DNA from: an uncultured Bacteroidales bacterium
GTDB taxonomy: Bacteria > Bacteroidota > Bacteroidia > Bacteroidales > FEN-979
Direction: 5' to 3'
Assembly: GCA_903926565.1 (NCBI GenBank)
Contig: CAIYJU010000135.1
Location: 6,751 to 70,750, forward strand
DNA: 64,000 bases
The notes beneath the pieces are model-generated. The model was not told the DNA's origin. It saw nothing but the letters and a program-made list of their open reading frames with translations, and made no database searches. Every line of letters begins with the position of its first letter. Position 1 is the stretch's first letter. Of the stretch, positions 12,344 through 56,178 are shown piece by piece. Both the position numbers and the translations under genes were made by a program.

Positions 12344-12358
12344 TTTCAGATACCCTGA

Positions 12359-13922: not shown

Positions 13923-13964
13923 GTTGTTATCTCCTATTTTAGAATTATTGATATGTTACCTGAA

Positions 13965-14621: not shown

Positions 14622-14764
14622 TCCCTCATGATAATTATCGGGCCGGGGGTTGGTGTGATCGGGATACTGCAGGCGTGGAAAAAAGAAATTCTTGGTAACT
14701 CATGCTTTCGTGAATAATCAGGGAAGGATGTTTTAGCAAGAATAGCTGTTAATCTGAATGCAAA

Positions 14765-14968
14765 TTAAGCTGCTTTTGCAGTTAATCCGATGGCTTCAGC
14801 ATACTTCAGGTATGTTTCAACAGAGGCAACAACGATTCTTGCTTCAATTGCAAGCAATTCGATACCTACCAAAGAAACTCTTACCCATGCATCAACTACA
14901 ACACCTTTGTCAAGGATACGGTCGATAACTTCAACGAGGCTTGATGATCCGATAGTCTTTTCTACCAT
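14765..14968 (-). CDS. gvpA: major gas vesicle structural protein GvpA
   Basis: 67 aa. [55 protein letters not shown] is near-canonical GvpA. An SD-like GGAG sits about 9 nt upstream of the ATG, which is unusual for this window. Confidence 0.97.
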
Positions 14969-15144
14969 TTTTTTAATCTCCTATATTAAATAAAAAAAAC
15001 CGTGCTTTACATGAGGGACGGTTTACCTCTTGTGCCATGAGTATATACAAAGGGTGAGCCGTAAAAGAGATAATAACCAGGAAAACCCGTTTAAATGAGT
15101 TAAGCCCCTGAAGATGAAAACAAAAAAAAGTGATTTATTTTTTC

Positions 15145-15173
15145 AGAAAAAAATTACCACACGGAATGCGTGG
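15145..15173 (-). terminator. candidate intrinsic terminator downstream of the response-regulator gene
   Basis: The minus strand reads CCACGC-ATTCC-GTGTGG (6-bp stem with one G-U) followed by TAATTTTTTTCT. It lies about 80 nt after the stop at 15255. Confidence 0.35.
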
Positions 15174-15254
15174 AAATATCAGAACAGCCGGCAATATAAT
15201 CACGTGCTGTACGCGTTATCGCGTGAAACAAACAGCCTGTTTCCCTGTATAAGG

Positions 15255-16646: not shown

Positions 16647-16654
16647 GATGCCAG

Positions 16655-19600
16655 TTACAAGTGACTTGTCAATAATATTTTAACAATTGTTCCATGCATT
16701 TTGTTACTCACAACCTCAATGGTTCCTCCCATTGATTTGATTATCTGATAACAGATCGACAGCCCGAGCCCGGTTCCCTTTCCTTCATCTTTGGTCGTAT
16801 AAAAAGGGAGCATGATGTTGCTTATGTCGTCGGTGCTGATACCAATGCCATTGTCGGCGACTTCAACGATCAGATATCCATTCTCACTGTACGACCTGAT
16901 GTCAACAATCAGTTCACGCGCAGTTCCTTCATGGCCTTTGATGTCGATCACTGCATCTTTGGCATTTACGAGGAGGTTAATCATTACCTGTTCAAATTTA
17001 TACGTATTGCCATGTATCTGAGGAAGGTCCCTGTCAAGCTGAAGGTCCAGTGATATTCCAAGATGCTTGAACTGTTCGGCAATCATTGAAACGGCATTTT
17101 CGATGCTTGAGTTAATGTCAAAGGCTGTCAATAAATAATCATCCTGCGTTCTCGAGAATGTCCTGACATGGTCAATGATGTTTCGTATCCTGGTAATATT
17201 GTCAAAAATCTTTTCTGATTTTTTTACCAGGAAGTCCTGATCCTCACTTCCGGTTTTCGCCTTCTCAAATAAAATTTTATCCATGACCATTGATATGATA
17301 TTCAATGGCTGGTTGATTTCATGGGCGATGCCGGCTGCCATTTCGCCCAGGTTGGCCATCCTGTCGGAATGCATCAGCTTGGTTTCCATTTTTTTACGCT
17401 GGGAAATATCGCGGATAATGATCATAAAGGATAGCGGAGTGCCATCCTGACTTTGTATCAGTGTGGTGCTTATTTCAGCCGGAAACAACGTGTTGTTCCT
17501 CTTTCTTATTTTGAGTTCAATATTTTGTGCGAGCCCTTCATTGATTGTCTTTTCATATAAATCCCGAAACACCCTTCTTTCTTCTGATGGAACAAATGAC
17601 AGGCAATTTTTCCCCACCAGGTCATTCCGGGTCATGGCCCCGAATATTTCCAGCCCGATTTCAGAGGCTTCGCTGATAATTCCCCGGAGGTCGATCAAAA
17701 GAATGCCATCCGGAGAAGCATTCAGCATTGTTCTGTATTTTTCGTCACTCACCTTCCTGGCCTGCTCTTCTCTCTGGAGATCGGTGATATCCAGTGAGAT
17801 TCCAAGCAAATATTCAGGCTCACCCTGATCATCGAACATCGGCATCTTCTGCGTGTGCAATATCCGCACTCCTTTGTGCCTTGTCTGAATAGGCTCCTGG
17901 GGGATATCGGTCAACCTCTTATTGCTGAGAGCCTCGCGGTCTTTTTCCACAAAACCTGCCGCAGTTTCCTTCGGAAGGAAATCAAAGTCACTTTTACCCA
18001 CAAGCTCTTCCTGGGTAAAACCCAGAAGTTCCTCTCCCGCACGGTTGATCCTTACGAAACGCAGATCCTTTGCGTCCTTGATGAAAATCATGTCAGGAAT
18101 ATTATCAATGACCGAATCGAGAAAGCCGTTCACCCTGCGTATCTCTACCTCTGCCTGCTTTCGCTCTGTAACGTCGTGGACAACGGTATACCGGTATTTT
18201 TTCTCCTGGATGTTTATAATTTCAGCAGAGAGCATTACATGTTTGACGTCACCGTTCTTTGCAACCAGGTTCGTTTCAATGTTCATTCCATGCCCTTTAT
18301 CGGCGATCGATTGCAACAATTGGTTTCGACTGTCAACAGTTAAAATGCCCAATTCAAGGGGGGTTTTCCCTATAACTTCTTCTTTGACGAACCCGAGAAG
18401 CCTGCTAAACGCTTCATTTACCTCTATATATTTGCCCGTGATATAATCGTCGAGTCCGCAGGCCGAGGGATTGAGATAAAACACTTTTGAGAATTTCTCC
18501 TCCGACAGCTTGATCTGTGTGATGTCCTTGCTGACACCATAAATTGCCGGTTTCCCATTCCAGTGCCCCTTTGAAATCCTTGTTTCAACTTCAATCCGGA
18601 ACCCCGATTTGGCCATGATCGGGACATTGCAGTAGTCAACTTCTCCACGAAGCATCCCGGCTATAATTTTGCCTGCCTCCTTACGGAGTTCGGGCGGATG
18701 AACCATCAGCACCGATTGTCCGGTCAGTTCTTCCGGAGAGTAGCCAAGTCTTTGTATGACGGTGTTGTTGCAGTGTATAATAGCACCCTGTCCGTCAAGA
18801 ACAAAAAGGAAATCATCGATCGCATTAAAAAAGGTTTCAAAATTGTGATGCATTTGTTGCAACAGGACTTCGGTTTGCTTGCGTCCGGTGATATCGATCA
18901 CATTCATCAGGCATTGATTGTCTTGTCCGACAGTAATGCCTTCAACGTGGACATATTTTGGCCGTTCGCCTCCTGCTTCAAGGATTAGTTCGCATACCTG
19001 TTTTGAATTACTCTTAAAAACGTTCCTGAAAAAGAGATTGAAGGCCGGGAGTGTATTTCCTGAGACAACCCGGTCGAAACGGGTGCCCAATAATTTGGAC
19101 CGGTCACTTGCAAGCATTCGTGTCCCGCTGTAATTGAGATCCTGGATCACTTTGCCCTTTGACAGCGTAAAATAGGCTGACGGAGCAAAATCGTAGAGTT
19201 CTGAATATTTCAGGGAGGTAGCTTCCACCCTGGAATTTGCCTCCAGGAGTTCATCATTCTGCAGTTCCAGTTCAACCTGGTGACTCCTTAAGTTTTCCTC
19301 CATCTCTTTGCGCCGCGTGATGTCAATGGTAAAGCAAAGAAAGAGGTTATCAGAAAGCCTGGTGGCTTCAAGCACCCACCAGCGCAGCTCGCCGCTTTTA
19401 CGCCTGACAAAGATATCCGCCTGTAATGAGCCGTTAGTGATAAGGCTGTTCAAATGAGCCAGCCAATTCAGTTGTGAACTTTCGGTAAGGATATCCGGGA
19501 CAGACAGGGTTAAGAGTTCTTCGGAGGAGTATCCGCTCATTGCACAGGCAGCAGGGTTCACTTCGATGTAATTTCCTTTTTCATCCAGGATAAAAACACC

Positions 19601-42668: not shown

Positions 42669-45188
42669 ATGGTTAACCAACGACTGCTACTCCTGCTCCT
42701 TGCCCTTATCACTTCTATCAACTGCCATTCCCAGGACACCTATCTCGTCAGCGGAAGGGTCATTGATTCCAGAACGAAGGAATCGCTTGCCTTCGTCAAC
42801 ATCGTGATCAACAACAGCAACAGCAAAGGTGGCACCACCGACATCGACGGAAAATTCAACCTCCGGTCGCAACAGCCCATTCAAACCCTGAGGCTGAGTT
42901 ATGTGGGATATGAACCGATGACAGTTAACCCCGGCAACCGCACCAAAGACTTCATCATCCAAATGACACAAAAGGAGATCGACCTGAAGGAGGTTGAGAT
43001 CCTACCCGGCATCAACCCGGCGCATCGAATCATTCGTAATGTGCTGGACAACCGCGACATCAATGATCCTGAAAAAGTCAGCACCTTCTCATATACAGCG
43101 TATGATAAAACGGTTTTCACAGCGAACAATGACACCACCCTCAAAGGCGATTTTGCGGCACTTGTTGACACCTCCGTCATGCAGGGAAGCCAGGGCGTTG
43201 GAATTGGATTTTCCATAGAGGCCGACTCTGTTAAAATGGACACAACCCGGAAGGATTCTACAGACAAATTCGTCGAAAAGCTGATCAACAGCCAATATCT
43301 CTTCCTGATGGAAAATGTGACCAAACGGAAATTCATGGCGCCCGACAAGAACTACAACAAAGTGATGGCCACCAAGATGTCTGGATTTAAAGACCCGATC
43401 CTGGTATTCCTGTCCACGCAGATCCAGAGTTTTTCGTTCTACAAACCCATCATCTCCATCATGATGAAAGATTATGTAAATCCAATCGGGAGCGGGAGTT
43501 TCAGTAAATATTTCTTTAAAATCGAAGATACCACTTATGTTGGAAAGGATACCGTTTTCATTTTGTCGTTCCGACCCAGAAAAGGCACCAATTTCGACGG
43601 TATGAAAGGCGTCATTTCGATCAGCAGCCACAACTGGGGAATTCAGAATGTGACCGCCGAACCTTATCCTAATACGGGAGGATTTATGATCAGGATTCAC
43701 CAGTTGTATGAACTGATCGACGGAAAACAGTGGTTTCCCGTGCAACTCAACACTGATGTGGCATTTAACAACCTGCAAATCGGGAAATACAAGGCAGTCG
43801 GGAGCGGCCGAAGTTACATCCGCGACATTGTACTCAACCCGGAGCTTGTGCGTCGTGAATTCAGCCACCTGGATGTAGAGGTTGACAAAGACGCAACATC
43901 GAGAAGCGAATCATTCTGGAACCAGTACCGCATTGACACGCTCAGCAAAAAAGACCGCCAGACCTATAAAGTACTCGACAGCATTGGCAAGGCAGAGAAT
44001 TTCGACAAGATGGCCAAAGGACTTCAGACCCTGCTCACCGGCCGGATTCCCTGGGGGCCGATCGACATTGACATCAACCGGTTTATCAACTACAACACTT
44101 ATGAAGGATTGGTACTCGGAGCTGGCATTCACACAAACGACCGTCTGTCAGAATGGTTTAAAATAGGCGGCTTTTACCAGTATGCTTTTGGCGCCTCCAC
44201 CTCTAAATATGGCGGGGATGTGAGTTTCCTGGTTAGCCGGCGGCAGGACATAACCATCAATGCATCTGGCTTTTATGACCTGACCGAGTCGGGAGGTGTT
44301 AACTTTCCTGGCGACTATGAATCGATCCTTTCCGGCAACTTCAGACAACTCCTGCTCAAAAAACTCGACCGGACACGCAGCTACAACTTATCCATGGGAT
44401 TCAGGGCTTTTAAATATGTATTGTTCAATGTCGGAATCTCCAACAACTTCAAAAAAACATCAACTAATGACCTTACAACCATTGAAGGAAGTGACACGCT
44501 GATTCAGTCACAGTTCAATTTTACCACCATAACGGCAGGGTTCAAATGGGCCTATGGTGAGAAGTTCATTAAAACCATCAACAACAAGATCTCCCTGGGC
44601 ACAAAATATCCGGTTGTATGGGTTGAATATACACGGGGTATCAAGGATTTCCTCGGAGGCGAATATGACTATGACCGGTTCGACCTGAAGATACGCAAAA
44701 CATTCAATATAAAATACTTAGGGAAGCTGACCGTTCAACTTAATGGAGGTTATGTTGACCAGCCGATTCCGGTCTGCAATCTATATTATGCACCAGCCAG
44801 TTACCGCCAGTTCACACTCTATGCACCAAACAGCTTCGGCACCATGCGTATGAACGAATTTCTTTCGAATAAATATGCATCCCTTTATCTTTACCATGAT
44901 TTCGGGTACCTCCTTTTCAAGGGAAAGAAGTGGTTCCATCCCGAGTTCGCCCTGTCGCAGAACCTCGGCTTCGGCTGGCTCGATCATCCCGAACAATACA
45001 TCAATAACAACCTGAATCCGAAGGTGATGAACCTTGGATACTACGAGTCGGGTTTGCTGGTAAACAACCTGATCAACCTCAAGATTTACACCATCGGCAT
45101 TGGCGCTTTTTACCGCTGGGGACCTTACTCATTTGATAATGTCGGGGATAATTTCGCGTATAAGGTGTCGATGATCTTCCCGTTTTAA
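42669..45188 (+). CDS. carboxypeptidase-regulatory-like domain protein with large beta-rich C-terminal region (DUF5686-like)
   Basis: 839 aa. Signal peptide, then VSGRVIDSRTKESLAFVNIVINNS...TTDIDGKFNL (CarboxypepD_reg-like). The C-terminus ends in an aromatic residue, as in OM proteins. Confidence 0.72.
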   Translation: MVNQRLLLLLLALITSINCHSQDTYLVSGRVIDSRTKESLAFVNIVINNSNSKGGTTDIDGKFNLRSQQPIQTLRLSYVGYEPMTVNPGNRTKDFIIQMTQKEIDLKEVEILPGINPAHRIIRNVLDNRDINDPEKVSTFSYTAYDKTVFTANNDTTLKGDFAALVDTSVMQGSQGVGIGFSIEADSVKMDTTRKDSTDKFVEKLINSQYLFLMENVTKRKFMAPDKNYNKVMATKMSGFKDPILVFLSTQIQSFSFYKPIISIMMKDYVNPIGSGSFSKYFFKIEDTTYVGKDTVFILSFRPRKGTNFDGMKGVISISSHNWGIQNVTAEPYPNTGGFMIRIHQLYELIDGKQWFPVQLNTDVAFNNLQIGKYKAVGSGRSYIRDIVLNPELVRREFSHLDVEVDKDATSRSESFWNQYRIDTLSKKDRQTYKVLDSIGKAENFDKMAKGLQTLLTGRIPWGPIDIDINRFINYNTYEGLVLGAGIHTNDRLSEWFKIGGFYQYAFGASTSKYGGDVSFLVSRRQDITINASGFYDLTESGGVNFPGDYESILSGNFRQLLLKKLDRTRSYNLSMGFRAFKYVLFNVGISNNFKKTSTNDLTTIEGSDTLIQSQFNFTTITAGFKWAYGEKFIKTINNKISLGTKYPVVWVEYTRGIKDFLGGEYDYDRFDLKIRKTFNIKYLGKLTVQLNGGYVDQPIPVCNLYYAPASYRQFTLYAPNSFGTMRMNEFLSNKYASLYLYHDFGYLLFKGKKWFHPEFALSQNLGFGWLDHPEQYINNNLNPKVMNLGYYESGLLVNNLINLKIYTIGIGAFYRWGPYSFDNVGDNFAYKVSMIFPF

Positions 45189-45258
45189 TCCCATTTCCCT
45201 CACCTATTTAGACTGCCTCAAAATTACATTTCGGTATTAGAAGGTTTGATTATTTTTT

Positions 45259-45266
45259 TACATTTG
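45259..45266 (+). promoter_or_regulatory. candidate -7 box (TACATTTG) for the respiratory operon
   Basis: TAnnTTTG match 30 nt upstream of the ATG at 45296. Confidence 0.3.
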
Positions 45267-45295
45267 TGCTTATAAATTCCGACAAGTAAGTAAAT

Positions 45296-46267
45296 ATGGA
45301 AGACAGCAATACTCCTCATTCTCCTCATGATTCGGAGGATCAAAAAAACTCTACCCGAAGAAATTTTCTGAAGAATATCGGATTGGCCGGAGTTGGTGTG
45401 GCCACCGGTGCTGCGGCACTTTATTCGGGCCATATCTTTGAAGCAAAGAAAGAGGTTTCCGGAGACCAGAAGGTTCTGCTCACGCAGGACGGGAAACTGG
45501 TCCAGGTTGACTCGCTTGAGATCAAGGCGATGGAAAAAACAGGAACCTCGCTTCATGAGGTCGAGGGCCGCGAAGGAATTCCCGGTCGCCGCTTTGTGAT
45601 GGTAACGGATCTTTCGAAATGCCGTAATGCCCGCAAATGCATCAATTCCTGCCAGGATGCTCACCAGCTCCGCCCCGAACAGTATCACATGAATACCCTG
45701 CAGATGCAGGATACGCCGAATACTGCGCCCTACCACATGCCAAAAAACTGTCAGCATTGCGACAATCCGCCCTGCGTTTCGGTTTGCCCGGTTGATGCAA
45801 CATACAAACGACCCGATGGCATCGTTCTGATTGACAACGAACGTTGTATCGGTTGCCGCTTCTGCATGGCTGCCTGCCCCTATTCTGCGCGTATCTTCAA
45901 CTGGATTGAACCCAAAGATGCGGCCACTCATGAGGGTCAGAACTACAATGTAGAGCTGAATGTTCCGCAAAGAACGGGAACCATCTCCAAATGCCTCTTC
46001 AGCGCCGATCGTTTGCGCGAAGGCAAACTTCCCTATTGCGTGGAAGCCTGCCCGAACGGGGTCTATTATTTCGGAGATGAAAACGAAGATGCCGTAACCA
46101 ACGGCACCACCAAAGAGACAGTCAGGCTGAGCAAGCTTCTCCGCGACAATGGCGGATACCAGCTGATGCCTGAACTTGGCACCAAGCCAAGGGTTTATTA
46201 CCTTCCTCCGAAGAACCGGCTCTTTCCGTTTGAAGAAGCCACCGATGCAACACCCGAAAAAGTATGA
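45296..46267 (+). CDS. Tat-exported 4Fe-4S cluster protein (NrfC/DmsB/PsrB family)
   Basis: 323 aa. Twin-arginine leader TRRNFLKNIGLAGVGVA, and ferredoxin motifs CQHCDNPPCVSVCP, CIGCRFCMAACP and ...CVEACP. Confidence 0.88.
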   Translation: MEDSNTPHSPHDSEDQKNSTRRNFLKNIGLAGVGVATGAAALYSGHIFEAKKEVSGDQKVLLTQDGKLVQVDSLEIKAMEKTGTSLHEVEGREGIPGRRFVMVTDLSKCRNARKCINSCQDAHQLRPEQYHMNTLQMQDTPNTAPYHMPKNCQHCDNPPCVSVCPVDATYKRPDGIVLIDNERCIGCRFCMAACPYSARIFNWIEPKDAATHEGQNYNVELNVPQRTGTISKCLFSADRLREGKLPYCVEACPNGVYYFGDENEDAVTNGTTKETVRLSKLLRDNGGYQLMPELGTKPRVYYLPPKNRLFPFEEATDATPEKV

Positions 46268-47595
46268 TGACCATGGATGAAAACAAACTGACTTTCGACA
46301 AAATCACCGCCGATCTCACACACCATATCCGGATCAACAAAGGGTTCCTTCTCTGGATGGGTTTTCTCACAGTATCGCTGCTGGTATGCCTTTACGCCTA
46401 TTCATTGCAGCTCCGCAACGGACTGGGCGTGGCCGGCATCCGCGACTATGTTACCTGGGGCATGTACCTCGCAAACTTTGTCTTCTTTGTGGCAGCCAGC
46501 CTCATCGGGATGCTCATCAGCGCCGTGCTTGGACTGATCGGCATGAAATGGCTTACCCCGATCACCAGGATCGCAGAGACCATCGCCGTGGCTTTTGCAG
46601 CGGTTGCAGGACTGGTCATCGTTTCCGATATGGGACGCCCTGAAAGGCTCGCTTATGTATTTCTTTACGGCAGGCCGCAGTCACCCATTCTCTGGGATGT
46701 AACGGTAATTACGACTTATTTTGTCCTGAGCCTGTTGCTACTTTTCCTTCCATTGATCGCCGACATGGCCATCATTCACCGGAAAGTACCTACCCTGCCA
46801 TCCTGGCTAAAACCAGTTTACAAATTTTTGTCGCTTAACTTTACCAATCACCCTGAACAAAACAAGATCATCAACCGCTCCATCCGTATCCTGCTCATCC
46901 TCCTCATCCCGGCGGCATTGTCGATCCACACGGTCACCTCCTGGCTGTTTGCCGTCACTTCAAGGGCAGGCTGGGACAGTACTGTTTTCGGCCCCTATTT
47001 CGTTTCAGGCGCCTTTGTTGCCGGTTCAGCAGCCGTGATCATTGCCATGTTCTTCTTCCGTAAAAATTACAAACTGGAGAATTACCTTACAGACATGCAT
47101 TTCAACAACATGGGAAAGGTGCTGGCAACTGTTTCACTGGTCTATCTCTATTTTAACATCAATGAATTCCTTGTTCCAGGCTACAAATTGAAACATGCCG
47201 ATGCCATTCACCTGCAGGAGCTGTTTGCCGGAAAAGACGCAATACTCTTTTGGATCGTGCAACTCGGCGGATTGATCATCCCCATTCTTTTCTTACTGTT
47301 CCGGCGTTTCAGAAATCCCATGCCACTCATGCTGATCTCGGCTGCCGTGATGATTGCAGCATGGTTCAAACGATACCTCATCGTTGTTCCCACACAGGAA
47401 CATCCGTTTCTGCCAATCCAGCATGTGCCGCAAAACTTTGTGCATTACACACCCACACTGATTGAGACCCTCATTACCATTGCCCCATTCATCCTGGTAC
47501 TCATCATCATCACGCTGATCTCCAAGTTTTTCCCGGTTATCCCGCTGCATGAAACTGCGGTGGAAAAAGGAGTGGACCATGTCAAATTTGATTAA
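46264..47595 (+). CDS. NrfD/PsrC-family polytopic quinol-interacting membrane subunit
   Basis: 443 aa with many TM helices. 4-nt overlap with the FeS gene. This is the typical NrfC-NrfD gene order. Confidence 0.82.
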   Translation: MMTMDENKLTFDKITADLTHHIRINKGFLLWMGFLTVSLLVCLYAYSLQLRNGLGVAGIRDYVTWGMYLANFVFFVAASLIGMLISAVLGLIGMKWLTPITRIAETIAVAFAAVAGLVIVSDMGRPERLAYVFLYGRPQSPILWDVTVITTYFVLSLLLLFLPLIADMAIIHRKVPTLPSWLKPVYKFLSLNFTNHPEQNKIINRSIRILLILLIPAALSIHTVTSWLFAVTSRAGWDSTVFGPYFVSGAFVAGSAAVIIAMFFFRKNYKLENYLTDMHFNNMGKVLATVSLVYLYFNINEFLVPGYKLKHADAIHLQELFAGKDAILFWIVQLGGLIIPILFLLFRRFRNPMPLMLISAAVMIAAWFKRYLIVVPTQEHPFLPIQHVPQNFVHYTPTLIETLITIAPFILVLIIITLISKFFPVIPLHETAVEKGVDHVKFD

Positions 47596-47616
47596 TCAAG
47601 AAATAATCAGGATACT

Positions 47617-48516
47617 ATGCGCTTCAATAAACTACTTTTAATCTTCTTCATTTTCTCAGTCGGAACAAGGGTTTCAGCTCAAACCTGGGTTGTTCCCGAC
47701 GACCAAAAAGGGGTGGTGGCATCTTTTAAATTCACACCCGACATGCAGAAGCAGGGAGAACAGATCTATGTGAAAAACTGCCAGTCGTGCCATGGTCAGA
47801 TGGGAAAAGACAATTGGGCAAAACTCACACCCCCACCGGGCGATTTGTCGAAGGAGAAAGCCCAGGTTCAAACAGATGGCGAACTCTTTTACCGCATCAC
47901 CGCGGGAAAGGTGCCTATGCCGGAATTCCGCAACATACTGGCGGAAGATGACCGCTGGTGGGTGATTGCATACATCCGCTCCTTCAACCCGAAATATGTT
48001 CAGCCAAATCCGGTTGCCAAAGCTGCGTTTACCGGCAGGATTGTCACCCTCGCCATGCAATACAGCGACCCGATGAAAAAGATCGTCGTTTCGGCAACCG
48101 AACAATTGAAAGAAGGGCAAACCGGTCCTGCTGCCGGTGTTGAGGTCATGCTGTACGTGAAACGCTATTTTGGCAGCATGCAGGTCGGAGATATCAAAAC
48201 GACCAATGCCAAAGGAGAGGTGATGTTCGAATTTCCTGCCGACCTGCCCGGGAATAAAGATGGATTTGTAGAGGTTACGGCAAGGGTCAACGACCCGAAA
48301 AGTGTCATGAAAACCACGCCGGCAAATGCTGCACTGGCGATTGGCGCAAAAACCGATAAACCCAGTCTTACCGACACCCGGGCATGGTGGTCGGTGCGTT
48401 CGCAGGCGCCAATCTGGATTCTGCTAACCTATACCTTATCTGTGATCATTGTGTGGGGATTCATTCTCTATATCGTTTATTCGATTATGAAGATCAGGAA
48501 GCTGAGCAAAGGGTAG
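47617..48516 (+). CDS. membrane-anchored monohaem cytochrome c
   Basis: 299 aa. Signal peptide, a single CQSCH haem-binding motif with a downstream Met (VPMPEF), and a C-terminal TM helix. Confidence 0.8.
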   Translation: MRFNKLLLIFFIFSVGTRVSAQTWVVPDDQKGVVASFKFTPDMQKQGEQIYVKNCQSCHGQMGKDNWAKLTPPPGDLSKEKAQVQTDGELFYRITAGKVPMPEFRNILAEDDRWWVIAYIRSFNPKYVQPNPVAKAAFTGRIVTLAMQYSDPMKKIVVSATEQLKEGQTGPAAGVEVMLYVKRYFGSMQVGDIKTTNAKGEVMFEFPADLPGNKDGFVEVTARVNDPKSVMKTTPANAALAIGAKTDKPSLTDTRAWWSVRSQAPIWILLTYTLSVIIVWGFILYIVYSIMKIRKLSKG

Positions 48517-48565
48517 ATTGAATTGACGATTATAGGATTGACGATTGAGGGATTTTAAATAATGG
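48517..48565. repeat. two ATTGACGATT boxes 15 bp apart (reverse orientation of the AATCGTCAAT box)
   Basis: attgacgatt occurs at 48522-48531 and 48537-48546, between the cytochrome c stop and the doxX start. Confidence 0.7.
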
Positions 48566-48585
48566 TTGGGTTTTAATAAAGTCGA

Positions 48586-48957
48586 ATGAAACAATTATCA
48601 ACTATCGGAAGGATACTTTTTGCACTGCCTTTTGGCATCATGGGGCTGAACCATTTCTTCATGTACAATTACTACGTCGGGATGGTCAGCTCGTTTATTC
48701 CGGGTGGCGGATTCACCGTGATCATCACCGGGCTTGCGCTGGTGGCAGCATGCATCGCCATCATTTCGAAAAAACTCATTCAGATTGCATGTCTACTGCT
48801 TGCCCTGCTCCTGCTGATTTTCATTTGTACCATTCACATTCCCGGACTGTTTGAACCGGCCACTGCAAACATGGCCCTGATCGAATTGCTGAAAGATACT
48901 GCATTGTTGGGCGGGTCGCTGATGATAGCTGGGATATATAAGGAGGAAACTATTTAA
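48586..48957 (+). CDS. DoxX-family membrane protein
   Basis: 123 aa with four hydrophobic helices. GRILFALPFGIMGLNHF is a DoxX-like N-terminus. Confidence 0.65.
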   Translation: MKQLSTIGRILFALPFGIMGLNHFFMYNYYVGMVSSFIPGGGFTVIITGLALVAACIAIISKKLIQIACLLLALLLLIFICTIHIPGLFEPATANMALIELLKDTALLGGSLMIAGIYKEETI

Positions 48958-49033
48958 TTGAATAACTATAAATGGAAAGTGCAAACAAGATAAATTTGGA
49001 CTAAAGTCCTGCAAGCGGGTTGCCATTAGTTAA

Positions 49034-49053
49034 CCACGGCCTGAAGGCCGTGG
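49034..49053. repeat. perfect 8-bp-stem TGAA-loop hairpin
   Basis: ccacggcc-tgaa-ggccgtgg. Its right arm runs into the first unit of the 15-bp tandem array. Confidence 0.85.
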
Positions 49054-49139
49054 CAATTCAAAGCGTGGCAATTCAAAGCGTGGCAATTCAAAGCGGGGCA
49101 ATTCAAAGCGTGGCAATTCAAAGCGGGGCAATTCAAAAC
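49050..49139. repeat. 15-bp tandem repeat x6 (gtggcaattcaaagc)
   Basis: Six head-to-tail units: four are gtggcaattcaaagc, one is ggggcaattcaaagc and the last is ggggcaattcaaaac. Intergenic, between doxX and the SCO1 gene. Confidence 0.95.
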
Positions 49140-49145
49140 GATCAA

Positions 49146-49170
49146 TTGGCTTTAGCCAAATTTTTTATTA
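49146..49170 (+). terminator. weak terminator-like hairpin plus T-tract
   Basis: ttggc-ttta-gccaa followed by attttttatt. The stem is short (5 bp). Confidence 0.25.
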
Positions 49171-49225
49171 AGAAATTCATTTTTAACCATGAAGCAACAA
49201 ATACACTAAATCCAAACCAACAATC

Positions 49226-50014
49226 ATGAAAAATCGATTTTTCGGTTTCAGTATTTTCTTTTTCTTTTGTTTGGGATTTGGCTCATTGCAGGCAATTTCC
49301 CAGGTAGAGGGACTTGCAGAAGAGGTTGGTATCGTTGAACATCTCGACACAATTATTCCTGCAAACCTGACCTTTAACAATGAGCAGGGTCAGCCTGTTC
49401 AGTTGAAATCGCTCATTACAAGGCCCACCATCCTTTCGCTGGTTTACTATGATTGCCCGGGAATATGCCCGCAATTACTGTCCGGAATTTCTGATGTCAT
49501 TGAAAAATCAGGACTGGAGCTGGGCAAGGATTACCAGGTAATCACCGTAAGCTTCAATTATGATGATACACCTGAAGCTTCTGTTGAAAAAAAGAAGAAC
49601 TTTTTACGTGCGCACAGCAAGCCACGGGCCGACCATTGGACCTATCTTACAGGCGACAGCGCCAACATCTATGCGTTAACCCATACGGTTGGCTATAATT
49701 TCACACGCGCCGGCAATGATTTCATGCATCCCTCCTGCATCATGGTCCTCAGCCCGGAAGGCAAGGTTACACGTTATCTGTATGGAACATCCTACCTCCC
49801 TTTTGACGTAAAAATGGCGCTTGTCGAAGCTCAGAAAGGACAGTCGAGGCCTACCATCAACCGCGTACTTGAATATTGCTTTACGTATGACCCTGAAGGC
49901 AGAAAATACACGTTGCAGGTGACGAAAATCGCCGCCACCATCATCATTTTCTTTGCGATTGCTTTATTTATCACATTACTTGTCCGATCATCCCGAAAAA
50001 AATCGAAAACATAA
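49226..50014 (+). CDS. SCO1/SenC-family copper chaperone
   Basis: 262 aa. Thioredoxin-fold CxxxC (YYDCPGICPQL), a conserved His further on, and a C-terminal TM segment. Confidence 0.85.
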   Translation: MKNRFFGFSIFFFFCLGFGSLQAISQVEGLAEEVGIVEHLDTIIPANLTFNNEQGQPVQLKSLITRPTILSLVYYDCPGICPQLLSGISDVIEKSGLELGKDYQVITVSFNYDDTPEASVEKKKNFLRAHSKPRADHWTYLTGDSANIYALTHTVGYNFTRAGNDFMHPSCIMVLSPEGKVTRYLYGTSYLPFDVKMALVEAQKGQSRPTINRVLEYCFTYDPEGRKYTLQVTKIAATIIIFFAIALFITLLVRSSRKKSKT

Positions 50015-50023
50015 ATTCATAAT

Positions 50024-51634
50024 ATGACTGAACAAACGACTCATCACCCTGAGCCAAGTTACCTGGTTGATACCGGCAAATACAAAGGCCTGATGGCCTG
50101 GCTCACATCAACCGACCACAAGCGGATCGGCTTGATGTATATGTATGCCATGATGGTCTTTTTCGCCGTAGGGGTGCTCCTTGGTGTAGTGATGCGCATG
50201 GAACTGTTCTGGCCGGGACAGCAATTTTACGGACCACAGATGTACAACGGGATATTCACCATTCATGGCATCATCATGATCTTTACAGTGGTGATTCCCG
50301 GGCTGGCCGCGGTATTTGGCAACTTCTCAATGCCCATCATGATTGGCGCCAAGGATGTCGCATTTCCAAGGTTAAACCTGTTCTCCTTTTATCTTTATGT
50401 GCTGGGTGCTGCCATTGCACTTTCTTCACAGTTTATGGGGAATGGCCCTCCTGATACAGGATGGACGTTTTATGCACCTTACAGCATTCAAACCCATACC
50501 AATGTGGTGGCAGCAGTCTTTGGTGCGTTTGTGCTGGGATTTTCGTCCATCCTCACCGGATTGAACTTCATCGTGACCATGCATCGCATGCGTGCACCCG
50601 GCATGACATTTTTCAAGATGCCACTCTTTCCATGGTCGCTTTATGCAACTGCATGGATACAGGTTCTTGCCACACCGATCGTTGGAATTACGCTGCTGAT
50701 GATCATCGCAGAGCGTTGGCTGCGCATCGGCTTCTTCGATCCATCCCTGGGAGGCGACCCCGTACTCTACCAGCACCTTTTCTGGATCTATTCCCACCCG
50801 GCCGTTTATATCATGATCCTGCCGGCCATGGGCGTGATCACTGAAATCATTCCTACCTTCGCGCAAAAGAAGGTTTTCGGATACAAGGCCATCGCCATAT
50901 CCAGTCTGGCCATCGCGCTGGTCGGATATTTCGTGTGGGCCCATCACATGTACACCTCCGGTATGAGTACTACGGCCCGGTGGGTCTTCTCCCTGCTAAC
51001 CTTCCTGGTTGCCGTTCCAAGCGCCATCAAGGTGTTTAACTGGGTTACCACCATGTATAAAGGCTCCATCTCCATGAAACCGCCGATGCTGTTCGCCATC
51101 GGGTTCATCTTCCTGTTCATGATTGGCGGGATGACCGGACTCTCATTGGGTGCACTCGCCACCAATGTGCATGTGCATGACACTGCATATGTTGTTGCCC
51201 ATTTCCACTACATTGTTTTCGGCGGTGTGGGTTTTGCGTTCTTTGCTGCGATATATTACTGGTATCCAAAGATGTATGGGCGTATGTATAACTTTAAAAT
51301 GGCCAACTGGTCATTCGTCTTTCTTTTCAGTGGATTCAACCTGCTCTACTTCCCTCAATTTATCATCGGAATGATGGGCATGCCCCGCAGATATTTTGAT
51401 TACCTGCCACAGTTTACCTTTGGGCATCAGCTCTCCTTCTTCGGAGGGATCCTGCTGGTTATTGGCTTCATCATCATGCTGATCACCCTGTTCAGTAAAA
51501 AAGGCGCAAAAGCTCCCGATAATCCCTGGGGCGGAAGAACATTTGAGTGGCGGATAGCCTCCCCTCCTACCCTGGAGAATTTTGAGGTGATGCCCGAGAT
51601 GGGACCAGATGAGCAGCCTTATGATTACAAATAG
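50024..51634 (+). CDS. ctaD: cytochrome c oxidase subunit I (haem-copper oxidase)
   Basis: 536 aa. GIFTIHGIIMIF, WAHHMYTSGM, HDTAYVVAHFHYIVFGG. Confidence 0.97.
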   Translation: MTEQTTHHPEPSYLVDTGKYKGLMAWLTSTDHKRIGLMYMYAMMVFFAVGVLLGVVMRMELFWPGQQFYGPQMYNGIFTIHGIIMIFTVVIPGLAAVFGNFSMPIMIGAKDVAFPRLNLFSFYLYVLGAAIALSSQFMGNGPPDTGWTFYAPYSIQTHTNVVAAVFGAFVLGFSSILTGLNFIVTMHRMRAPGMTFFKMPLFPWSLYATAWIQVLATPIVGITLLMIIAERWLRIGFFDPSLGGDPVLYQHLFWIYSHPAVYIMILPAMGVITEIIPTFAQKKVFGYKAIAISSLAIALVGYFVWAHHMYTSGMSTTARWVFSLLTFLVAVPSAIKVFNWVTTMYKGSISMKPPMLFAIGFIFLFMIGGMTGLSLGALATNVHVHDTAYVVAHFHYIVFGGVGFAFFAAIYYWYPKMYGRMYNFKMANWSFVFLFSGFNLLYFPQFIIGMMGMPRRYFDYLPQFTFGHQLSFFGGILLVIGFIIMLITLFSKKGAKAPDNPWGGRTFEWRIASPPTLENFEVMPEMGPDEQPYDYK

Positions 51635-51670
51635 TCAGACAGGCTGACATGCAGGAGGATGAATAACAAG

Positions 51671-51705
51671 AAATCGTAAATCGTAAATCGTTTAATCGTA
51701 AATTG
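51671..51705. repeat. TCGTAAAT box cluster upstream of the oxidase subunit III start
   Basis: TCGTAAAT at 51674, 51681 and 51696, plus a degenerate copy at 51688. The cluster ends 7 nt before the ATG. Confidence 0.8.
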
Positions 51706-51709
51706 AAAC

Positions 51710-52303
51710 ATGGAACATCGCGACGACATTGGTGCAAAATTGGGTATGTGGATCTTTATTTTCACGGAGATCCTGCTTTTTGGCGGGTTATTTCTGGTAT
51801 ATGCCATCATGCGCAGCAACTATTCCACGGAATTCCACCAGGCAGCACACCACCTCAATGCATTCATCGGTACCATCAACACAATTGTTTTGCTGGCAAG
51901 TAGTGCAACAGTGGCAATGTCGATTACTGCCGTGCAAAAAGGAAACAACAAACTGGCAGTGATCCTGTTGTTCTTCACCCTGCTTTGTGCCGCGGCATTC
52001 ATGGTTAACAAGTATTTTGAGTGGGGGCACAAGATCCACATCGGCCTTTACCCCGGTTCCGACCTGATGGTTTCACTGAGCCACGGCCAGGTGATGTTTT
52101 TCAGCCTCTATTATTTCATGACAGGGTTGCACATGTTCCACCTTGTTGTTGGCGGGATCATTTTAACAATCGTAATGATCAAAGTGCAGAAAGGCACGAT
52201 TAATGCCGGCCGGTTTGTCCTGCTCGAAAATGGCGGTCTCTACTGGCATCTGGTCGATTTGATCTGGATATTTTTGTTCCCGTTGCTGTACCTTATAACT
52301 TAA
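51710..52303 (+). CDS. ctaE: cytochrome c oxidase subunit III
   Basis: 197 aa. GMWIFIFTEILLFGGLF and YWHLVDLIWIFLFPLLY motifs. Confidence 0.9.
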   Translation: MEHRDDIGAKLGMWIFIFTEILLFGGLFLVYAIMRSNYSTEFHQAAHHLNAFIGTINTIVLLASSATVAMSITAVQKGNNKLAVILLFFTLLCAAAFMVNKYFEWGHKIHIGLYPGSDLMVSLSHGQVMFFSLYYFMTGLHMFHLVVGGIILTIVMIKVQKGTINAGRFVLLENGGLYWHLVDLIWIFLFPLLYLIT

Positions 52304-52304
52304 A

Positions 52305-52380
52305 CTGGTGAACAGGTAAACAGGTGAACAGGTTAGCAGAGCCTGAAATCGTAAATCGTAAATCAATAAATCGTAAATTA
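52305..52380. repeat. composite intergenic element: 8-bp tandem (gtRaacRg x3-4) + gttagcagagcc + TCGTAAAT boxes
   Basis: gtgaacag gtaaacag gtgaacag gttagcag agcc tgaaa, then TCGTAAAT at 52349, 52356 and 52371. Confidence 0.85.
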
Positions 52381-52386
52381 TAAAAT

Positions 52387-52671
52387 ATGCACAACGAAAC
52401 TGCTCATATAACCCCTTACCGGGCCCATGCATGGGTGCTGATCACCCTGCTGACACTGACATTTGTTACCATTACCGTGACCTGGGTCGATTTATCGGCA
52501 CTAACGGTGCTTGTGGCCATGCTGATCGCTTCGGTCAAAGCATACATCGTGCTCACCTATTTTATGCATTTAAAATTCGAATCGTCATTGTTTCGGGTAT
52601 TCGTTGTCATGGTGCTGGCTATCTATGTGCTGGTTATTTTGTTTACGTTATCGGATTATTTGTTTCGGTAA
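52387..52671 (+). CDS. cytochrome c oxidase subunit IV (prokaryotic COX4 family)
   Basis: 94 aa with three TM segments. KAYIVLTYFMHLKFE is the family motif. Confidence 0.78.
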   Translation: MHNETAHITPYRAHAWVLITLLTLTFVTITVTWVDLSALTVLVAMLIASVKAYIVLTYFMHLKFESSLFRVFVVMVLAIYVLVILFTLSDYLFR

Positions 52672-52741
52672 ACGGGTAAGCGGGTAAACAGGTTAGCGGA
52701 GCCAACAATCGTAAATCGTAAATCATACAATCGTAAATCAA
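52668..52741. repeat. second copy of the composite intergenic element
   Basis: gtaaacgg gtaagcgg gtaaacag gttagcgg agcc aaca, then TCGTAAAT at 52709, 52716 and 52731. This is the same architecture and box spacing (7 and 15 bp) as at 52305-52380. Confidence 0.85.
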
Positions 52742-52745
52742 AAAT

Positions 52746-53651
52746 ATGGGTGCTTCAAATTTTGTTGAAGGTGTAGATCTGGCCTTTAAAGTCATTTTCG
52801 GGATCAGTCTGTTTTTCCTTGTCGGGATAACTTCGGTCATGCTCTTTTTCGTATTCAGGTACAGCAAAAAGAGACATCCTGTGGCAGTGCAGATCAAAGA
52901 TAACAACATCCTTGAATTCACCTGGATCACCATCCCGCTGATCCTGGTACTGCTGATGTTCTATTATGGATATATCGCCTTCAGCCCGCAACGGATTGTC
53001 CCCAAGGATGCCATTCCCATCACGGTTATCGGGAAAATGTGGGTCTGGACTTTTGAATACGAGGGAGGAAAGCAATCACCGGTACTGGTAGTTCCACTTA
53101 ACAAGGCCGTTAAACTGAACCTCCACTCCGAAGATGTCATCCACAGCCTCTACATCCCCGCATTCCGCATCAAGGAAGATGTGGTGCCCGGAAAAGAAAA
53201 TTACATGTGGTTCATTGCCCAGCAACCGGGCGAATATGATGTGTTGTGTACCGTATATTGCGGACTTCGCCACTCTTACATGGAAACCAAAACGAAGGTC
53301 GTTTCGGAAGCCGAATATGCCGCCTGGCTGAAAGCGTTGCCCGAAAAATCGACAGAGCCTGAAGGACTTGTCATCCTGAAGAAAAATGCCTGCACCGGCT
53401 GTCATTCAATTGACGGGACCAAGATCGTAAGCGCATCATTTAAAGGCCTTTATGGCAAGTCAGAAAAAGTCATGACCAATGGGGCTGAACGAACGATCAC
53501 TGTTGATGACGAATATCTCAAATCTTCTGTTTACACCCCCGACAAAGATATCGTGGTTGGTTACCAGAAAGGGATCATGAAGACATACCAGGGCATTGTC
53601 AAAGACGATGAGATGACAAAGATCATCGACTATTTAAAAAGCATCAAGTAA
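52746..53651 (+). CDS. ctaC: cytochrome c oxidase subunit II with fused C-terminal cytochrome c domain (caa3-type)
   Basis: 301 aa with two N-terminal TM helices. CuA site DVIHS...CTVYCGLRHSYM, and a C-terminal CTGCH haem c motif. Confidence 0.92.
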   Translation: MGASNFVEGVDLAFKVIFGISLFFLVGITSVMLFFVFRYSKKRHPVAVQIKDNNILEFTWITIPLILVLLMFYYGYIAFSPQRIVPKDAIPITVIGKMWVWTFEYEGGKQSPVLVVPLNKAVKLNLHSEDVIHSLYIPAFRIKEDVVPGKENYMWFIAQQPGEYDVLCTVYCGLRHSYMETKTKVVSEAEYAAWLKALPEKSTEPEGLVILKKNACTGCHSIDGTKIVSASFKGLYGKSEKVMTNGAERTITVDDEYLKSSVYTPDKDIVVGYQKGIMKTYQGIVKDDEMTKIIDYLKSIK

Positions 53652-53665
53652 ACTCCTTACAATCT

Positions 53666-54532
53666 TTGCAGACCTCCGGCTTCCGAGTAATCCTTACTTT
53701 AACAAGATTCCCTGTTTCACTGGCAGTGACCTTTACGGCTTTTACCGCCCTGTTGCTGAGCCCGGTTGACCTCACTCCGGCCTCCCTGATTCCGGTGGCC
53801 GGCATTTTCCTGCTCGCTTCCGGTGCTTCTGCCTTCAACCAATACCAGGAGTGGCCTTACGACGAAAAGATGGAGCGCACACGGAGACGGCCGCTGCCAT
53901 CGCGCCGGATCACCACTGCAGAGGCACTCAGGTATTCAACAATGTTCATCATCGGGGGAATGCTGCTGCTGCTCTATTATGCCCCGCCTGTTTGTTTTCT
54001 CCTGGGGCTGGGAAATCTTGTCTGGTACAACGGCGTTTACACCTATCTGAAGCGAAAAACCGCATTTGCAGTCGTTCCGGGAGCACTTACAGGGGCCATC
54101 CCCATCTTCATGGGCTGGACAGCCGGGGGCGGCTCGCTGCTTGCACCTGAAGTTCTGTTCCTGGCATTTTTCCTTTTTCTCTGGCAGATGCCCCATTTCT
54201 GGCTGCTTACTCTTAAATACGGGCATGAATATCGCAATGCCGGCTTCCCGGTGCTGAACGACCTGTTCTCCGAATTCCAGATCAGGAGCGTTGTGATGGG
54301 GTGGATGATCGCCTCGTCGGGAGCTTCCATCATGCTGGTGCTGTTTAAAATACTGGCACATCCTGTGCTTGGTTATGCAATTATCGGGTTGAACATGTCA
54401 TTGCTGATCGTGATGTTCTGGCAGCTGTTCATGGCATCTTCTCTTCGTTACCGGCTGATTTTCATTGCCGCCAACCTGTTCATGCTGATCGTGATGCTGT
54501 CGCTGATTGCCGACAGGTTTGTGAGTGGCTGA
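53666..54532 (+). CDS. ctaB: protohaem IX farnesyltransferase (haem O synthase)
   Basis: 288 aa polytopic UbiA-family protein (NQYQEWPYDEKMERTRRRPLP). Position next to the oxidase genes supports the call. Confidence 0.88.
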   Translation: MQTSGFRVILTLTRFPVSLAVTFTAFTALLLSPVDLTPASLIPVAGIFLLASGASAFNQYQEWPYDEKMERTRRRPLPSRRITTAEALRYSTMFIIGGMLLLLYYAPPVCFLLGLGNLVWYNGVYTYLKRKTAFAVVPGALTGAIPIFMGWTAGGGSLLAPEVLFLAFFLFLWQMPHFWLLTLKYGHEYRNAGFPVLNDLFSEFQIRSVVMGWMIASSGASIMLVLFKILAHPVLGYAIIGLNMSLLIVMFWQLFMASSLRYRLIFIAANLFMLIVMLSLIADRFVSG

Positions 54533-54786: not shown

Positions 54787-56178
54787 ATGAATAATAACAT
54801 TTACAGGATTCCTTTCATTATACTGACCGCCATGGTCATCTGTACTATAAATGTGTATGCTGTCAAACGCGTTGTGTCTGTCGGAAATTTCTTTTTCAAC
54901 CCGGCAAGCATCAGCGCGAATGTTGGCGATACGATGCGCTGGGTTTGGGTTGCCGGTTTTCATACAACAACCTCATTGACCGTGCCCCCTGGTGCAGCAA
55001 TTTGGGATGCACCAATCACCAGTTCAAGCCAGACCTATGAATATAAAATAACGGTAGCCGGCAGCTACACGTATGATTGCAAAATTCACGGTCTCGGGAT
55101 GTCTGGTTCGTTTACCGCTGCAAATGTTACACCGACACTTGCCGTCGCACCATCAAATCAGAATGTAAGCGCCGCCTCGGGGAGTACTTCATTCGGCGTT
55201 ATTTCCAATTCCACATGGACGACCAGCAGCAATGCCGTTTGGTGCTCGGTAACAAGCGGCGGAACTGGAAATGGAACCATTACGGCGAATTATTTATCAA
55301 ATCCCGATGTAAGCCAACGGGTTGCATCAATTGTAGTTACAGTACCAGCCATTCCATCGCAAACAGTCACCGTTACACAGGCAGGATCGCCGCAATTACA
55401 GGCATCTGCCACCGCAACCCCTGCATCAATTATTGCCGGTCAATCTTCACAACTGGATATATCTCCAACCGGAGGCACCGGAACTTATTCCTATTCATGG
55501 ACCTCTGTTCCTGCCGGATTCACCTCAACATTGAAAAATCCCATTGTAACCCCAGCCATCACAACCGTTTACTCATGCATGGTAATGAGTGGAGCCCAAA
55601 TGGTAAACCCGACCACTTCTGTCACTGTTAATCCGGCGCCGCCGGCAACATTAATCCTCCAGAATAACACGATAATTAACGGACAATCATTTTGTTATAA
55701 TGCCAGCCAGACCATCACAGTGGGTGGCGATGGAAATTTATTTGACATTGAGAACGGGGGAATTGCGACAATGATTGCCGGACAAAATATCCTTTTTCTT
55801 CCCGGTACACTTGTTAATTCAGGTGGTAATTTGAATGCCTACATCACAGTAAATGGCCCCTACTGCACACCTGCAGCGGCACCTGCTATTTTAAGCCATG
55901 TTAAACAAGGTGAGATTCAGGGGCAAGCGACAACAACAATTTTCAGGGTTTTTCCAAACCCAACGTCAGGAGATTTTATGATTGAACAAAACGGCTCGCT
56001 TTCAGGTTCCCCAATCGCAGTTGATGTCATTGGAACTCTCGGAGAAACAGCGATATCTGAAAGACTCTCAGGAGAGTTCAGCCACAGGTTTTCTCTGGCC
56101 GGCAAACCTGCAGGAATTTATTACATCCGGTTAATTTTTGACGGCAGCACAGATGTTCTGAAACTTGTCAAACAGTAG
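54787..56178 (+). CDS. secreted cupredoxin (type-1 copper) - BACON-like - T9SS type-A CTD protein
   Basis: 463 aa. Plastocyanin-like ligand pattern (GFHTTT ... YDCKIHGLGM), a BACON-like segment (VAPSNQNVSAASGSTSFGVISNSTWTTSSNAVWCSV), and C-terminus FRVFPNPTSGDFMI...GIYYIRL. Confidence 0.8.
   Translation: MNNNIYRIPFIILTAMVICTINVYAVKRVVSVGNFFFNPASISANVGDTMRWVWVAGFHTTTSLTVPPGAAIWDAPITSSSQTYEYKITVAGSYTYDCKIHGLGMSGSFTAANVTPTLAVAPSNQNVSAASGSTSFGVISNSTWTTSSNAVWCSVTSGGTGNGTITANYLSNPDVSQRVASIVVTVPAIPSQTVTVTQAGSPQLQASATATPASIIAGQSSQLDISPTGGTGTYSYSWTSVPAGFTSTLKNPIVTPAITTVYSCMVMSGAQMVNPTTSVTVNPAPPATLILQNNTIINGQSFCYNASQTITVGGDGNLFDIENGGIATMIAGQNILFLPGTLVNSGGNLNAYITVNGPYCTPAAAPAILSHVKQGEIQGQATTTIFRVFPNPTSGDFMIEQNGSLSGSPIAVDVIGTLGETAISERLSGEFSHRFSLAGKPAGIYYIRLIFDGSTDVLKLVKQ

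Follow-up and report, generated by a model that had tools for sequence, protein, structure and literature searches.

To our knowledge, quinol:cytochrome c oxidoreduction is known from two types of enzyme only, the bc1/b6f complexes and alternative complex III (ACIII), and both the mechanism and the minimal core of the latter are still debated. ACIII (ActABCDEF; structures 6F0K, 6BTM, 6LOD and 8K9E) has six or seven subunits and acts as a menaquinol:cytochrome c oxidoreductase. A Tat-exported iron-sulfur (FeS) module sits on a 10-helix NrfD-type subunit, and a monohaem cytochrome c is attached to the membrane by a lipid. The same FeS-NrfD pairing recurs in other systems. E. coli NrfCD carries electrons from menaquinol to NrfB/NrfA, and QrcABCD, with its molybdopterin-like subunit QrcB and its hexahaem QrcA, carries them from cytochrome c3 to menaquinone. 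The DsrJOP part of DsrMKJOP combines an FeS protein of the periplasm with an NrfD-like protein of 10 helices and adds a c-type cytochrome, the trihaem DsrJ. In the genome of Melioribacter roseus, an NrfCD pair without a catalytic subunit was noted as a possible quinol:cytochrome reductase (PMC3534657). The locus described here lies in 64,000 nucleotides of DNA from an uncultured Bacteroidales bacterium (GenBank assembly GCA_903926565.1, contig CAIYJU010000135.1, positions 6751-70750), called the window below. Directly upstream of the genes for a caa3-type cytochrome c oxidase, it encodes a periplasmic FeS subunit, an NrfD-like membrane subunit and a third subunit, X3, which is a monohaem cytochrome c.

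Comparison of this trio with its relatives suggests that it is probably a membrane menaquinol:cytochrome c oxidoreductase that feeds the downstream caa3 oxidase, in the place that ACIII holds in related genomes. Its proposed function would be identical to that of ACIII, although it has three subunits where ACIII has six or seven. The part of the NrfD-family survey of Calisto and Pereira that was available describes no such complex, and a full-text literature search, whose coverage left out most subscription journals, returned no description of the trio.

The trio takes the place of ACIII in the oxidase operon

In G027 and G035, two genomes with ACIII, the operon reads actA-B-C-D-E-F-sco-coxI-III-IV-II-ctaB. 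In the window, in genome G025 and in the 11 named loci from metagenome-assembled genomes (MAGs) that are long enough, it reads FeS-NrfD-X3-(doxX)-sco-coxI-III-IV-II-ctaB. The trio takes the actABCDEF position ahead of an otherwise identical oxidase operon.

The two arrangements are distributed in an almost complementary manner. Within the same genus, an X3 orthologue and the caa3 coxI gene lie 1-3 kb apart on one contig in 17 of 24 genomes and are both absent from 4; ActD was found in none of the 24. An order-wide draw of 250 genomes included 69 with an A-type CoxI, to which the following counts are restricted. ActD occurs in 32 and X3 within 3 kb of coxI in 21. Only two genomes, G463 and G483, have both, and in each there is a pair of coxI operons, of which the first adjoins ActD and the second X3; the two lie within 18 kb of each other in G463 (C1:1557546-1575113) and on C13 and C15 in G483. 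An X3 of this type (E <= 1e-25) is encoded somewhere in 33 of the 37 ActD-negative genomes, compared with 3 of the 32 ActD-positive ones. These counts are descriptive and carry no statistical test, since the genomes are related, though they span dozens of family codes. ActD was likewise found in none of 11 further named genomes with a cox-linked module, and cytochrome b in 2 of 32 named genomes.

The original prediction had seen no bc1 genes, and this agrees with the assembly as a whole (210 contigs, 93.8% complete), in which no match to ActD (PF11821) and no cytochrome b was found; a single Rieske protein of 344 residues is encoded on a separate contig. The genome encodes three oxidases, the caa3 enzyme, a cbb3 enzyme with a fused CcoNO and cytochrome bd, the first two of which depend on cytochrome c. 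A catalytic partner lying outside the locus had also been envisaged. The genome has only two PF00384 proteins: one is PsrA-like and comes with B and C subunits of its own, the other is a cytoplasmic fusion resembling NuoG/Nfn. Neither can partner the trio, and no orphan periplasmic molybdoenzyme was found in the genome.

Organization of the locus

Gene calls come from the open reading frame map and from Pfam and NCBIfam scans:

45296-46267, + strand: periplasmic FeS subunit, 323 residues; Tat motif TRRNFLK, Fer4_11 dicluster domains
46264-47595, + strand: NrfD-like quinol-binding membrane subunit, 443 residues; PF03916, 107 bits
47617-48516, + strand: third subunit (X3), monohaem cytochrome c, 299 residues; cytochrome c domain, one CXXCH
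48586-48957, + strand: small membrane protein, 123 residues, weakly DoxX-like; PF07681, E = 0.17, 12.9 bits against a cut-off of 23.6
48958-49225, no strand: repeat-rich gap, 268 bp; with a weak terminator-like hairpin at 49146-49159
49226-50014, + strand: SCO1/SenC copper chaperone; Pfam
50024-51634, + strand: cytochrome c oxidase subunit I (CoxI), A-type; TIGR02891, 651.8 bits
51710-52303, + strand: oxidase subunit III (CoxIII); Pfam
52387-52671, + strand: caa3-type oxidase subunit IV (CoxIV); TIGR02229
52746-53651, + strand: oxidase subunit II (CoxII); CuA motif CxxxCxxxHxxM, C-terminal haem c domain, CXXCH at 216
53666-54532, + strand: UbiA-family protohaem IX farnesyltransferase, ctaB-like; UbiA-family match

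This map bears out most of the original prediction. The FeS and NrfD-like genes overlap by 4 nt as described, the third subunit has one haem motif and a membrane anchor, and the downstream genes are those named (SCO1, CoxI/III/IV/II and ctaB), except that the assignment of the small membrane protein to DoxX is weak. The Pfam scan of the locus also agrees that no molybdopterin subunit, ActA or ActB fusion is present. The gene 5' of the trio (42669-45188) encodes a CarboxypepD_reg/DUF5686 protein, not a molybdopterin subunit, and Pfam and motif scans found no multihaem gene across 42669-54532, the trio itself having a single CXXCH. A Pfam scan of the neighbourhood detected no nrfA, nrfB, dsrMK or dsrAB near the trio.

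Lake-water metagenomes contain DNA of the window, and the close homologues of its proteins are labelled as MAGs of Bacteroidales, Bacteroidota or Prolixibacteraceae. The gap between the doxX-like gene and sco1 differs among lake samples: in run X1, GGT is inserted and 15 letters are replaced around 49058-49144, and in run X6 many small deletions fall within 49076-49122. This variation fits an unstable tandem-repeat array. Directly 3' of ctaB, positions 54787-56178 encode a cupredoxin, plastocyanin/azurin-like, that bears a BACON domain and, at its C-terminus, a sorting domain of the type IX secretion system; a surface-exported blue copper protein is an odd companion for a respiratory operon.

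The NrfD-like subunit and the position of the module relative to ACIII

The NrfD-like subunit has about 10 hydrophobic helices and no cofactor motifs. Its only sequence matches in the PDB are the ActC subunits of the four ACIII structures, aligned over the full length with E-values from 8e-46 (6f0k_C, the best) to 2e-38. Quinone-site residues of ActC were taken from PMC8076601. Two of them in Rhodothermus ActC, Ser164 and Asp169, align with S140 and D145, and both are invariant across 34 homologues. The position of ActC His139 is occupied by an aspartate, D122, as it is in DsrP, QrcD and HybB.

Model-based annotation points elsewhere. The best NCBIfam models for the FeS and NrfD-like subunits are DsrO and DsrP, yet both scores lie below the cut-offs (186.8 against 200 bits and 124.5 against 350, respectively). 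A genuine ActC of a relative obtains 53.6 bits with the DsrP model, and the best model for ActB is QrcC. The FeS subunit scores 119 bits on the NrfC equivalog TIGR03149 (cut-off 377.6) and 114.6 on QrcC (cut-off 400), and the NrfD-like subunit 59.6 on QrcD (cut-off 570).

Because the NCBIfam ranking favoured DsrO/DsrP while the PDB search gave ActC, trees were built with ActC, ActF and ActB from three genomes of the same order, genuine DsrO/DsrP from Chlorobia, E. coli NrfCD, HybAB and DmsBC, and the Psr-like and Hmc-like pairs of the genome itself. In the more careful NrfD tree, the module NrfDs and ActC/ActF form one clade (support 91/92, unstarred) that excludes DsrP, HybB/HmcC and NrfD/PsrC, the 318-residue E. 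coli NrfD grouping with PsrC as outgroup. The branching order inside this clade is open, ActC plus ActF (86/95) being one lineage among several. The ActC clade is distinct (100/100, starred), and the NrfD-like subunit of the trio falls in a separate module clade, A+B (98/100, starred). Within it, the cox-linked copies are monophyletic (97/97, starred) and nested among nap- and cbb3-linked copies (98/100, starred). The FeS tree, made with a quick method, likewise places the module proteins in a clade of their own (99, starred), apart from ActB2, DsrO and NrfC/PsrB, with its deeper nodes open. The neighbourhood of one contig in the NrfD tree may be mentioned here: L101 (CAYMRD010000003.1), labelled "uncultured Bifidobacteriaceae", carries a module NrfD that groups tightly with a Flavobacteriaceae copy, and is probably a mis-binned Bacteroidota contig.

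On these trees, the module is the nearest relative of the ACIII core and not a recently reduced ACIII. The original prediction of a stripped-down, ACIII-like oxidoreductase is upheld as to function, by comparative evidence, and not as to descent: this is a separate family, with a third-subunit domain of its own. Clustering of the module FeS and NrfD proteins with reductive NrfCD/PsrBC systems, which would have spoken against the prediction, was not observed.

The likeness to ACIII is nevertheless considerable. Both have a Tat-exported FeS module on a 10-helix NrfD-type subunit and a membrane-attached monohaem cytochrome c, and both are encoded ahead of the caa3 genes. The trio lacks the pentahaem ActA, the molybdopterin-like B1 domain, ActD and the second NrfD-like subunit, ActF, of ACIII. 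The true ActB proteins of relatives are 985-990 residues long, with B1 fused to the FeS part, B2, whereas the FeS subunit of the trio has 323 residues and no PF00384 match in Pfam.

The other systems differ more. NrfCD pairs resemble the trio as FeS-NrfD pairs without a molybdopterin subunit that are taken to pass menaquinol electrons to periplasmic c-type cytochromes, and the trio is a variant on an old theme to the extent that such a cytochrome-reducing pair is already known from E. coli. However, NrfC has the full 16-cysteine pattern, there is no third subunit and the sink is a nitrite reductase, not an oxidase. DsrJOP has the same three kinds of protein, but the genuine Chlorobia DsrO and DsrP form clades separate from the trio; the proposition that the module is simply DsrOP-like was rejected on the sub-cut-off scores, the trees and the gene context. 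QrcABCD shares the FeS-NrfD core and the periplasmic cytochrome partners, yet the trio scores far below the cut-offs of QrcC and QrcD. Three-subunit molybdoenzymes of the Psr/Ttr type have a molybdopterin catalytic subunit, and none adjoins the trio.

An iron-sulfur subunit with two three-cysteine sites

The FeS subunit consists of a Tat signal, a conserved N-terminal stretch of about 50 residues and a four-site ferredoxin domain. Tat export and the four sites had been correctly predicted; the number of cysteines is 14 and not 16, two of the sites having three each. The cysteines are at positions 109, 115 and 119 (group I), 152, 155, 160 and 164 (group II), 184, 187, 190 and 194 (group III), and 233, 248 and 252 (group IV). 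Upon alignment with ActB, E. coli NrfC and DmsB and a PsrB-like protein, groups II and III are complete (group III being CIGCRFC), while group I reads CxxAxxC-xxx-C and group IV CxxS...CxxxC. In ActB of relatives, by contrast, the cysteine-poor site is group III (CxxTxxC), which is proximal to the quinol.

The ligand scheme of this protein family is known from NarH, DmsB and PsrB. By this scheme, the three-cysteine sites of the trio would correspond to the two clusters farthest from the membrane. The cluster types themselves we infer from these ligand patterns. Residues 259-277 form a family-specific insert of the "EDxVTNGT" type.

The third subunit and a model of the complex

X3 begins with a signal peptide, followed by a class-I cytochrome c domain, a beta-sandwich at about residues 140-245 and a C-terminal transmembrane helix (264-298). 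Its haem site comprises the C55xxCH motif (C55-H59) and M101. The fold is predicted with high confidence (predicted local distance difference test, pLDDT, 93), with the long C-terminal helix at 266-298 in it, and its top fold match is ActE of Roseiflexus ACIII (6lod_E, E = 7.8e-6), the likeness to ActE in sequence being weak. The ActE-like haem domain is nonetheless set in a different architecture: the cytochrome of the trio is held by a beta domain followed by a membrane helix at the C-terminus, and that of ACIII by its lipid.

The beta domain and helix have no Pfam match, and in the ESM Atlas the C-terminal domain matched only unnamed Bacteroidota clusters of "hypothetical protein" with scores below 0.9. 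The C-terminal 174 residues match 638 clusters (50% identity) at E <= 1e-3. Among the best 150 of these, 67 are proteins of about 300 residues with one CXXCH near positions 55-65, and 46 are of about the same length without a haem motif.

A model of the three-chain complex, of the kind that the original prediction had called for, gave X3 a partner score of 0.77, compared with 0.49 for the best control. Of 80 solved complexes, 58 attained this mark, as did 2 of 110 mismatched pairs. The model runs share at least 89% of their contacts, with a partner pLDDT of at least 80. In the model, the X3 helix (264-298) lies on residues 135-217 of the NrfD-like subunit, and the conserved KRYFG loop of X3 (181-189) on the FeS insert (259-277). 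The model supports the binding of X3 to the FeS-NrfD pair, and part of its score may be owed to likeness with solved ACIII structures. Together with this model, natural fusions of the X3 domain to NrfD, one of 742 residues in a paralogue of the same genome and one of 775 residues in G306, indicate that X3 is a subunit of the complex. The G306 fusion gene adjoins coxI.

Paralogues and sister modules

Several features recur across the family and are all present in the trio: the gene order FeS-NrfD-X3, the CxxAxxC form of group I, the "EDxVTNGT" insert, and an X3 with the KRYFG motif and a terminal transmembrane helix. On this signature, the trio is to be placed in a widespread family. The three genes of the trio are intact and, in many genomes, conserved at 60-90% identity.

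The genome holds two further FeS-NrfD-X3 modules, on contigs C35 and C46, which the original prediction, made from the window, had missed. In the C46 module, X3 has no haem, and the genes are preceded by those of a multihaem cytochrome and a cytochrome b561. The whole run (L009, C46:90000-108000, positions 2115-10656) is on one strand and encodes a DUF5777 beta-barrel, two small cytochromes c, the multihaem cytochrome of 362 residues, the cytochrome b561 and the module with the haem-free X3; it may constitute an outward electron-transfer route. In the C35 module, NrfD ends in a fused X3 domain (the protein of 742 residues), and a separate cytochrome c of 139 residues follows. There (L008, C35:1-16000, positions 5857-12042), a Crp-family regulator gene is divergent from the FeS gene, and the genes of the fusion, of the small cytochrome c and of a DUF2339-like membrane protein come after it. 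Paralogues of the C35 type are widespread, with loci in Chitinophagaceae, Flavobacteriaceae, Saprospiraceae and Ignavibacteria (L086-L124).

Sister modules with 55-60% NrfD identity precede other sinks. They lie ahead of napA-napG-napH-napB-napD in Marinifilum flexuosum, Draconibacterium aestuarii, Prolixibacteraceae JC049 and a Melioribacteraceae MAG, and ahead of ccoI-ccoNO in Ancylomarina longa and Labilibaculum. All four cultured carriers of sister modules that were checked also possess ACIII. A further branch of the family is seen in L077 and L078 (a Prolixibacteraceae UBA9940 MAG and an Odoribacter sp. MAG; about 11300-17000), where the trio is followed, about 6 kb downstream, by an ActA-like multihaem match and a second FeS gene.

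The genome also encodes a pair of another type (L010, C206:28000-45000, positions 5592-10231), an HmcB/HmcC-like FeS protein and NrfD protein, the latter scoring 392 bits on the HmcC model, below the cut-off of 550. The pair is flanked by two proteins with glycine-cleavage-H domains, and in one of these a periplasmic-binding-protein-like domain is fused on. A lipoyl-carrier-type protein beside a quinone module is a puzzling combination.

Proposed function and alternatives

CoxII has both a CuA site and a haem c domain, and the enzyme downstream of the trio is therefore a true cytochrome c oxidase, which needs a donor at the level of cytochrome c. Moreover, all the neighbours found for the family (caa3, cbb3 and Nap) are sinks at that level, the pattern expected of a module that oxidises quinol and reduces cytochrome c. 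We propose that menaquinol would bind, and be oxidised, at a pocket of the NrfD-like subunit on the periplasmic side, its protons being released outside the membrane. Electrons would pass to the nearest [4Fe-4S] cluster of the FeS subunit and along the four-cluster wire, in which the two distal three-cysteine sites might perhaps be clusters of higher potential; that such sites at the cytochrome end suit a wire running uphill in potential is speculation. The electrons would then reach the X3 haem, held in place by the C-terminal helix on NrfD and the beta domain on the FeS subunit, and from there the haem c domain of CoxII. Proton translocation by ActC is discussed in PMC8076601; for the NrfD-like subunit it would be conjecture on the basis of sequence.

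Several points weigh against this reading. The support for it is comparative in kind, drawn from gene content, homology, synteny and distribution across genomes, from which we also infer in which direction electrons flow, the types of cluster, contact with the oxidase and, if there is any, proton translocation. Nearly half of the ActD-negative oxidase genomes (18 of 37) have no X3 directly beside coxI, and it is possible that an ACIII or a bc1 complex was missed in a MAG of 210 contigs and this completeness. The C35 and C46 paralogues are further possible reducers of cytochrome c. At the position of ActC Asp253 the NrfD-like subunit has a leucine, Leu228, and the complex model gave no confident contact for the haem domain of X3. 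Lastly, the 268-bp gap with its weak hairpin intervenes between the doxX-like gene and sco1, so that module and oxidase may not share a single transcript in this genome. Close relatives do not have this gap, the X3 gene directly abutting sco1 there, and only some relatives have a doxX-like gene at the same spot (homologues are so placed in L047 and L049). A scan for sigma-70 promoters returned 13 sites against 14 expected, Bacteroidota promoters differing from the sigma-70 type scanned. Contigs from a freshwater RNA library, of a relative about 90-95% identical, cover the FeS, NrfD, X3, CoxI and CoxII genes; none of them bridges module and oxidase, and DNA carry-over is possible, so that they are proof of neither transcription nor co-transcription.

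Other functions can be considered for such a module. It might serve more generally as a quinol dehydrogenase, filling a pool of periplasmic cytochrome c from which several sinks (cbb3 and other reductases) draw, its adjacency to caa3 reflecting co-regulation and not a dedicated partnership. Sister modules beside nap or cbb3 genes would be in keeping with this, as would the cbb3 oxidase of the same genome, in which no other quinol:cytochrome c enzyme is recognised. We nevertheless consider it unlikely, since synteny with coxI is near-invariant in the cox-linked clade, the X3 haem is tethered to the membrane and not soluble, and G463 and G483 retain one feeder for each oxidase operon. Electrons might also flow the other way, from a periplasmic donor to the quinone pool, in a cytochrome c:menaquinone reductase like Qrc; Qrc and Hmc/Nhc use the same FeS-NrfD core in that direction, as is established for QrcABCD. 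Yet no periplasmic dehydrogenase or hydrogenase is found nearby, the neighbours are all sinks, and the QrcC and QrcD scores given above are far below the cut-offs, which makes a reversed flow very improbable.

The position of the trio directly 5' of sco1 and of a small membrane protein evokes a device for oxidase biogenesis or redox maintenance, for instance one that supplies reductant for copper or thiol handling with SCO1. This explanation can be given very little weight: the family also adjoins nap genes, where no SCO1 is involved, the operon position that the trio fills is elsewhere that of ACIII, an enzyme of bulk electron transfer, and the carriers of cox-linked modules have no other candidate for complex III. 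It is no more plausible, in our opinion, that the trio is a degenerate remnant, whether of ACIII or of some molybdoenzyme with its catalytic partner at another locus. ActC is indeed the closest solved relative, and the FeS subunit scores near the DsrO and TtrB models. Against this, the FeS and NrfD proteins belong to well-supported clades outside ActB2 and ActC, the module has its own conserved third subunit and FeS insert, the genome contains no orphan periplasmic molybdopterin protein to serve as the missing partner, and three genes conserved at the identities given above have not decayed.

A menaquinol:cytochrome c oxidoreductase working for the adjacent oxidase is the function that we favour for the trio. 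A broader proposal, on which we are evenly divided, is that the trio is a self-sufficient third kind of complex III, possibly energy-conserving, whose family-specific tethered cytochrome connects straight to caa3, cbb3 or Nap, and that ACIII has given way to it in much of the Bacteroidales.

Significance

If the proposed function is true, a natural three-subunit relative that replaces ACIII would define the minimal core of this type of enzyme: an FeS wire, one NrfD-type subunit and one haem would suffice. Its small size would also make it convenient for structural and mutational studies, and experiments are feasible because the nap- and cbb3-linked sisters exist in cultured strains of Marinifilum, Ancylomarina and Draconibacterium. 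The genetics of ACIII is established in Flavobacterium johnsoniae (PMC8552683). Finally, the metabolic reconstructions of many Bacteroidales MAGs would be corrected, in which cytochrome c oxidases are seemingly left without a route for the reduction of cytochrome c.

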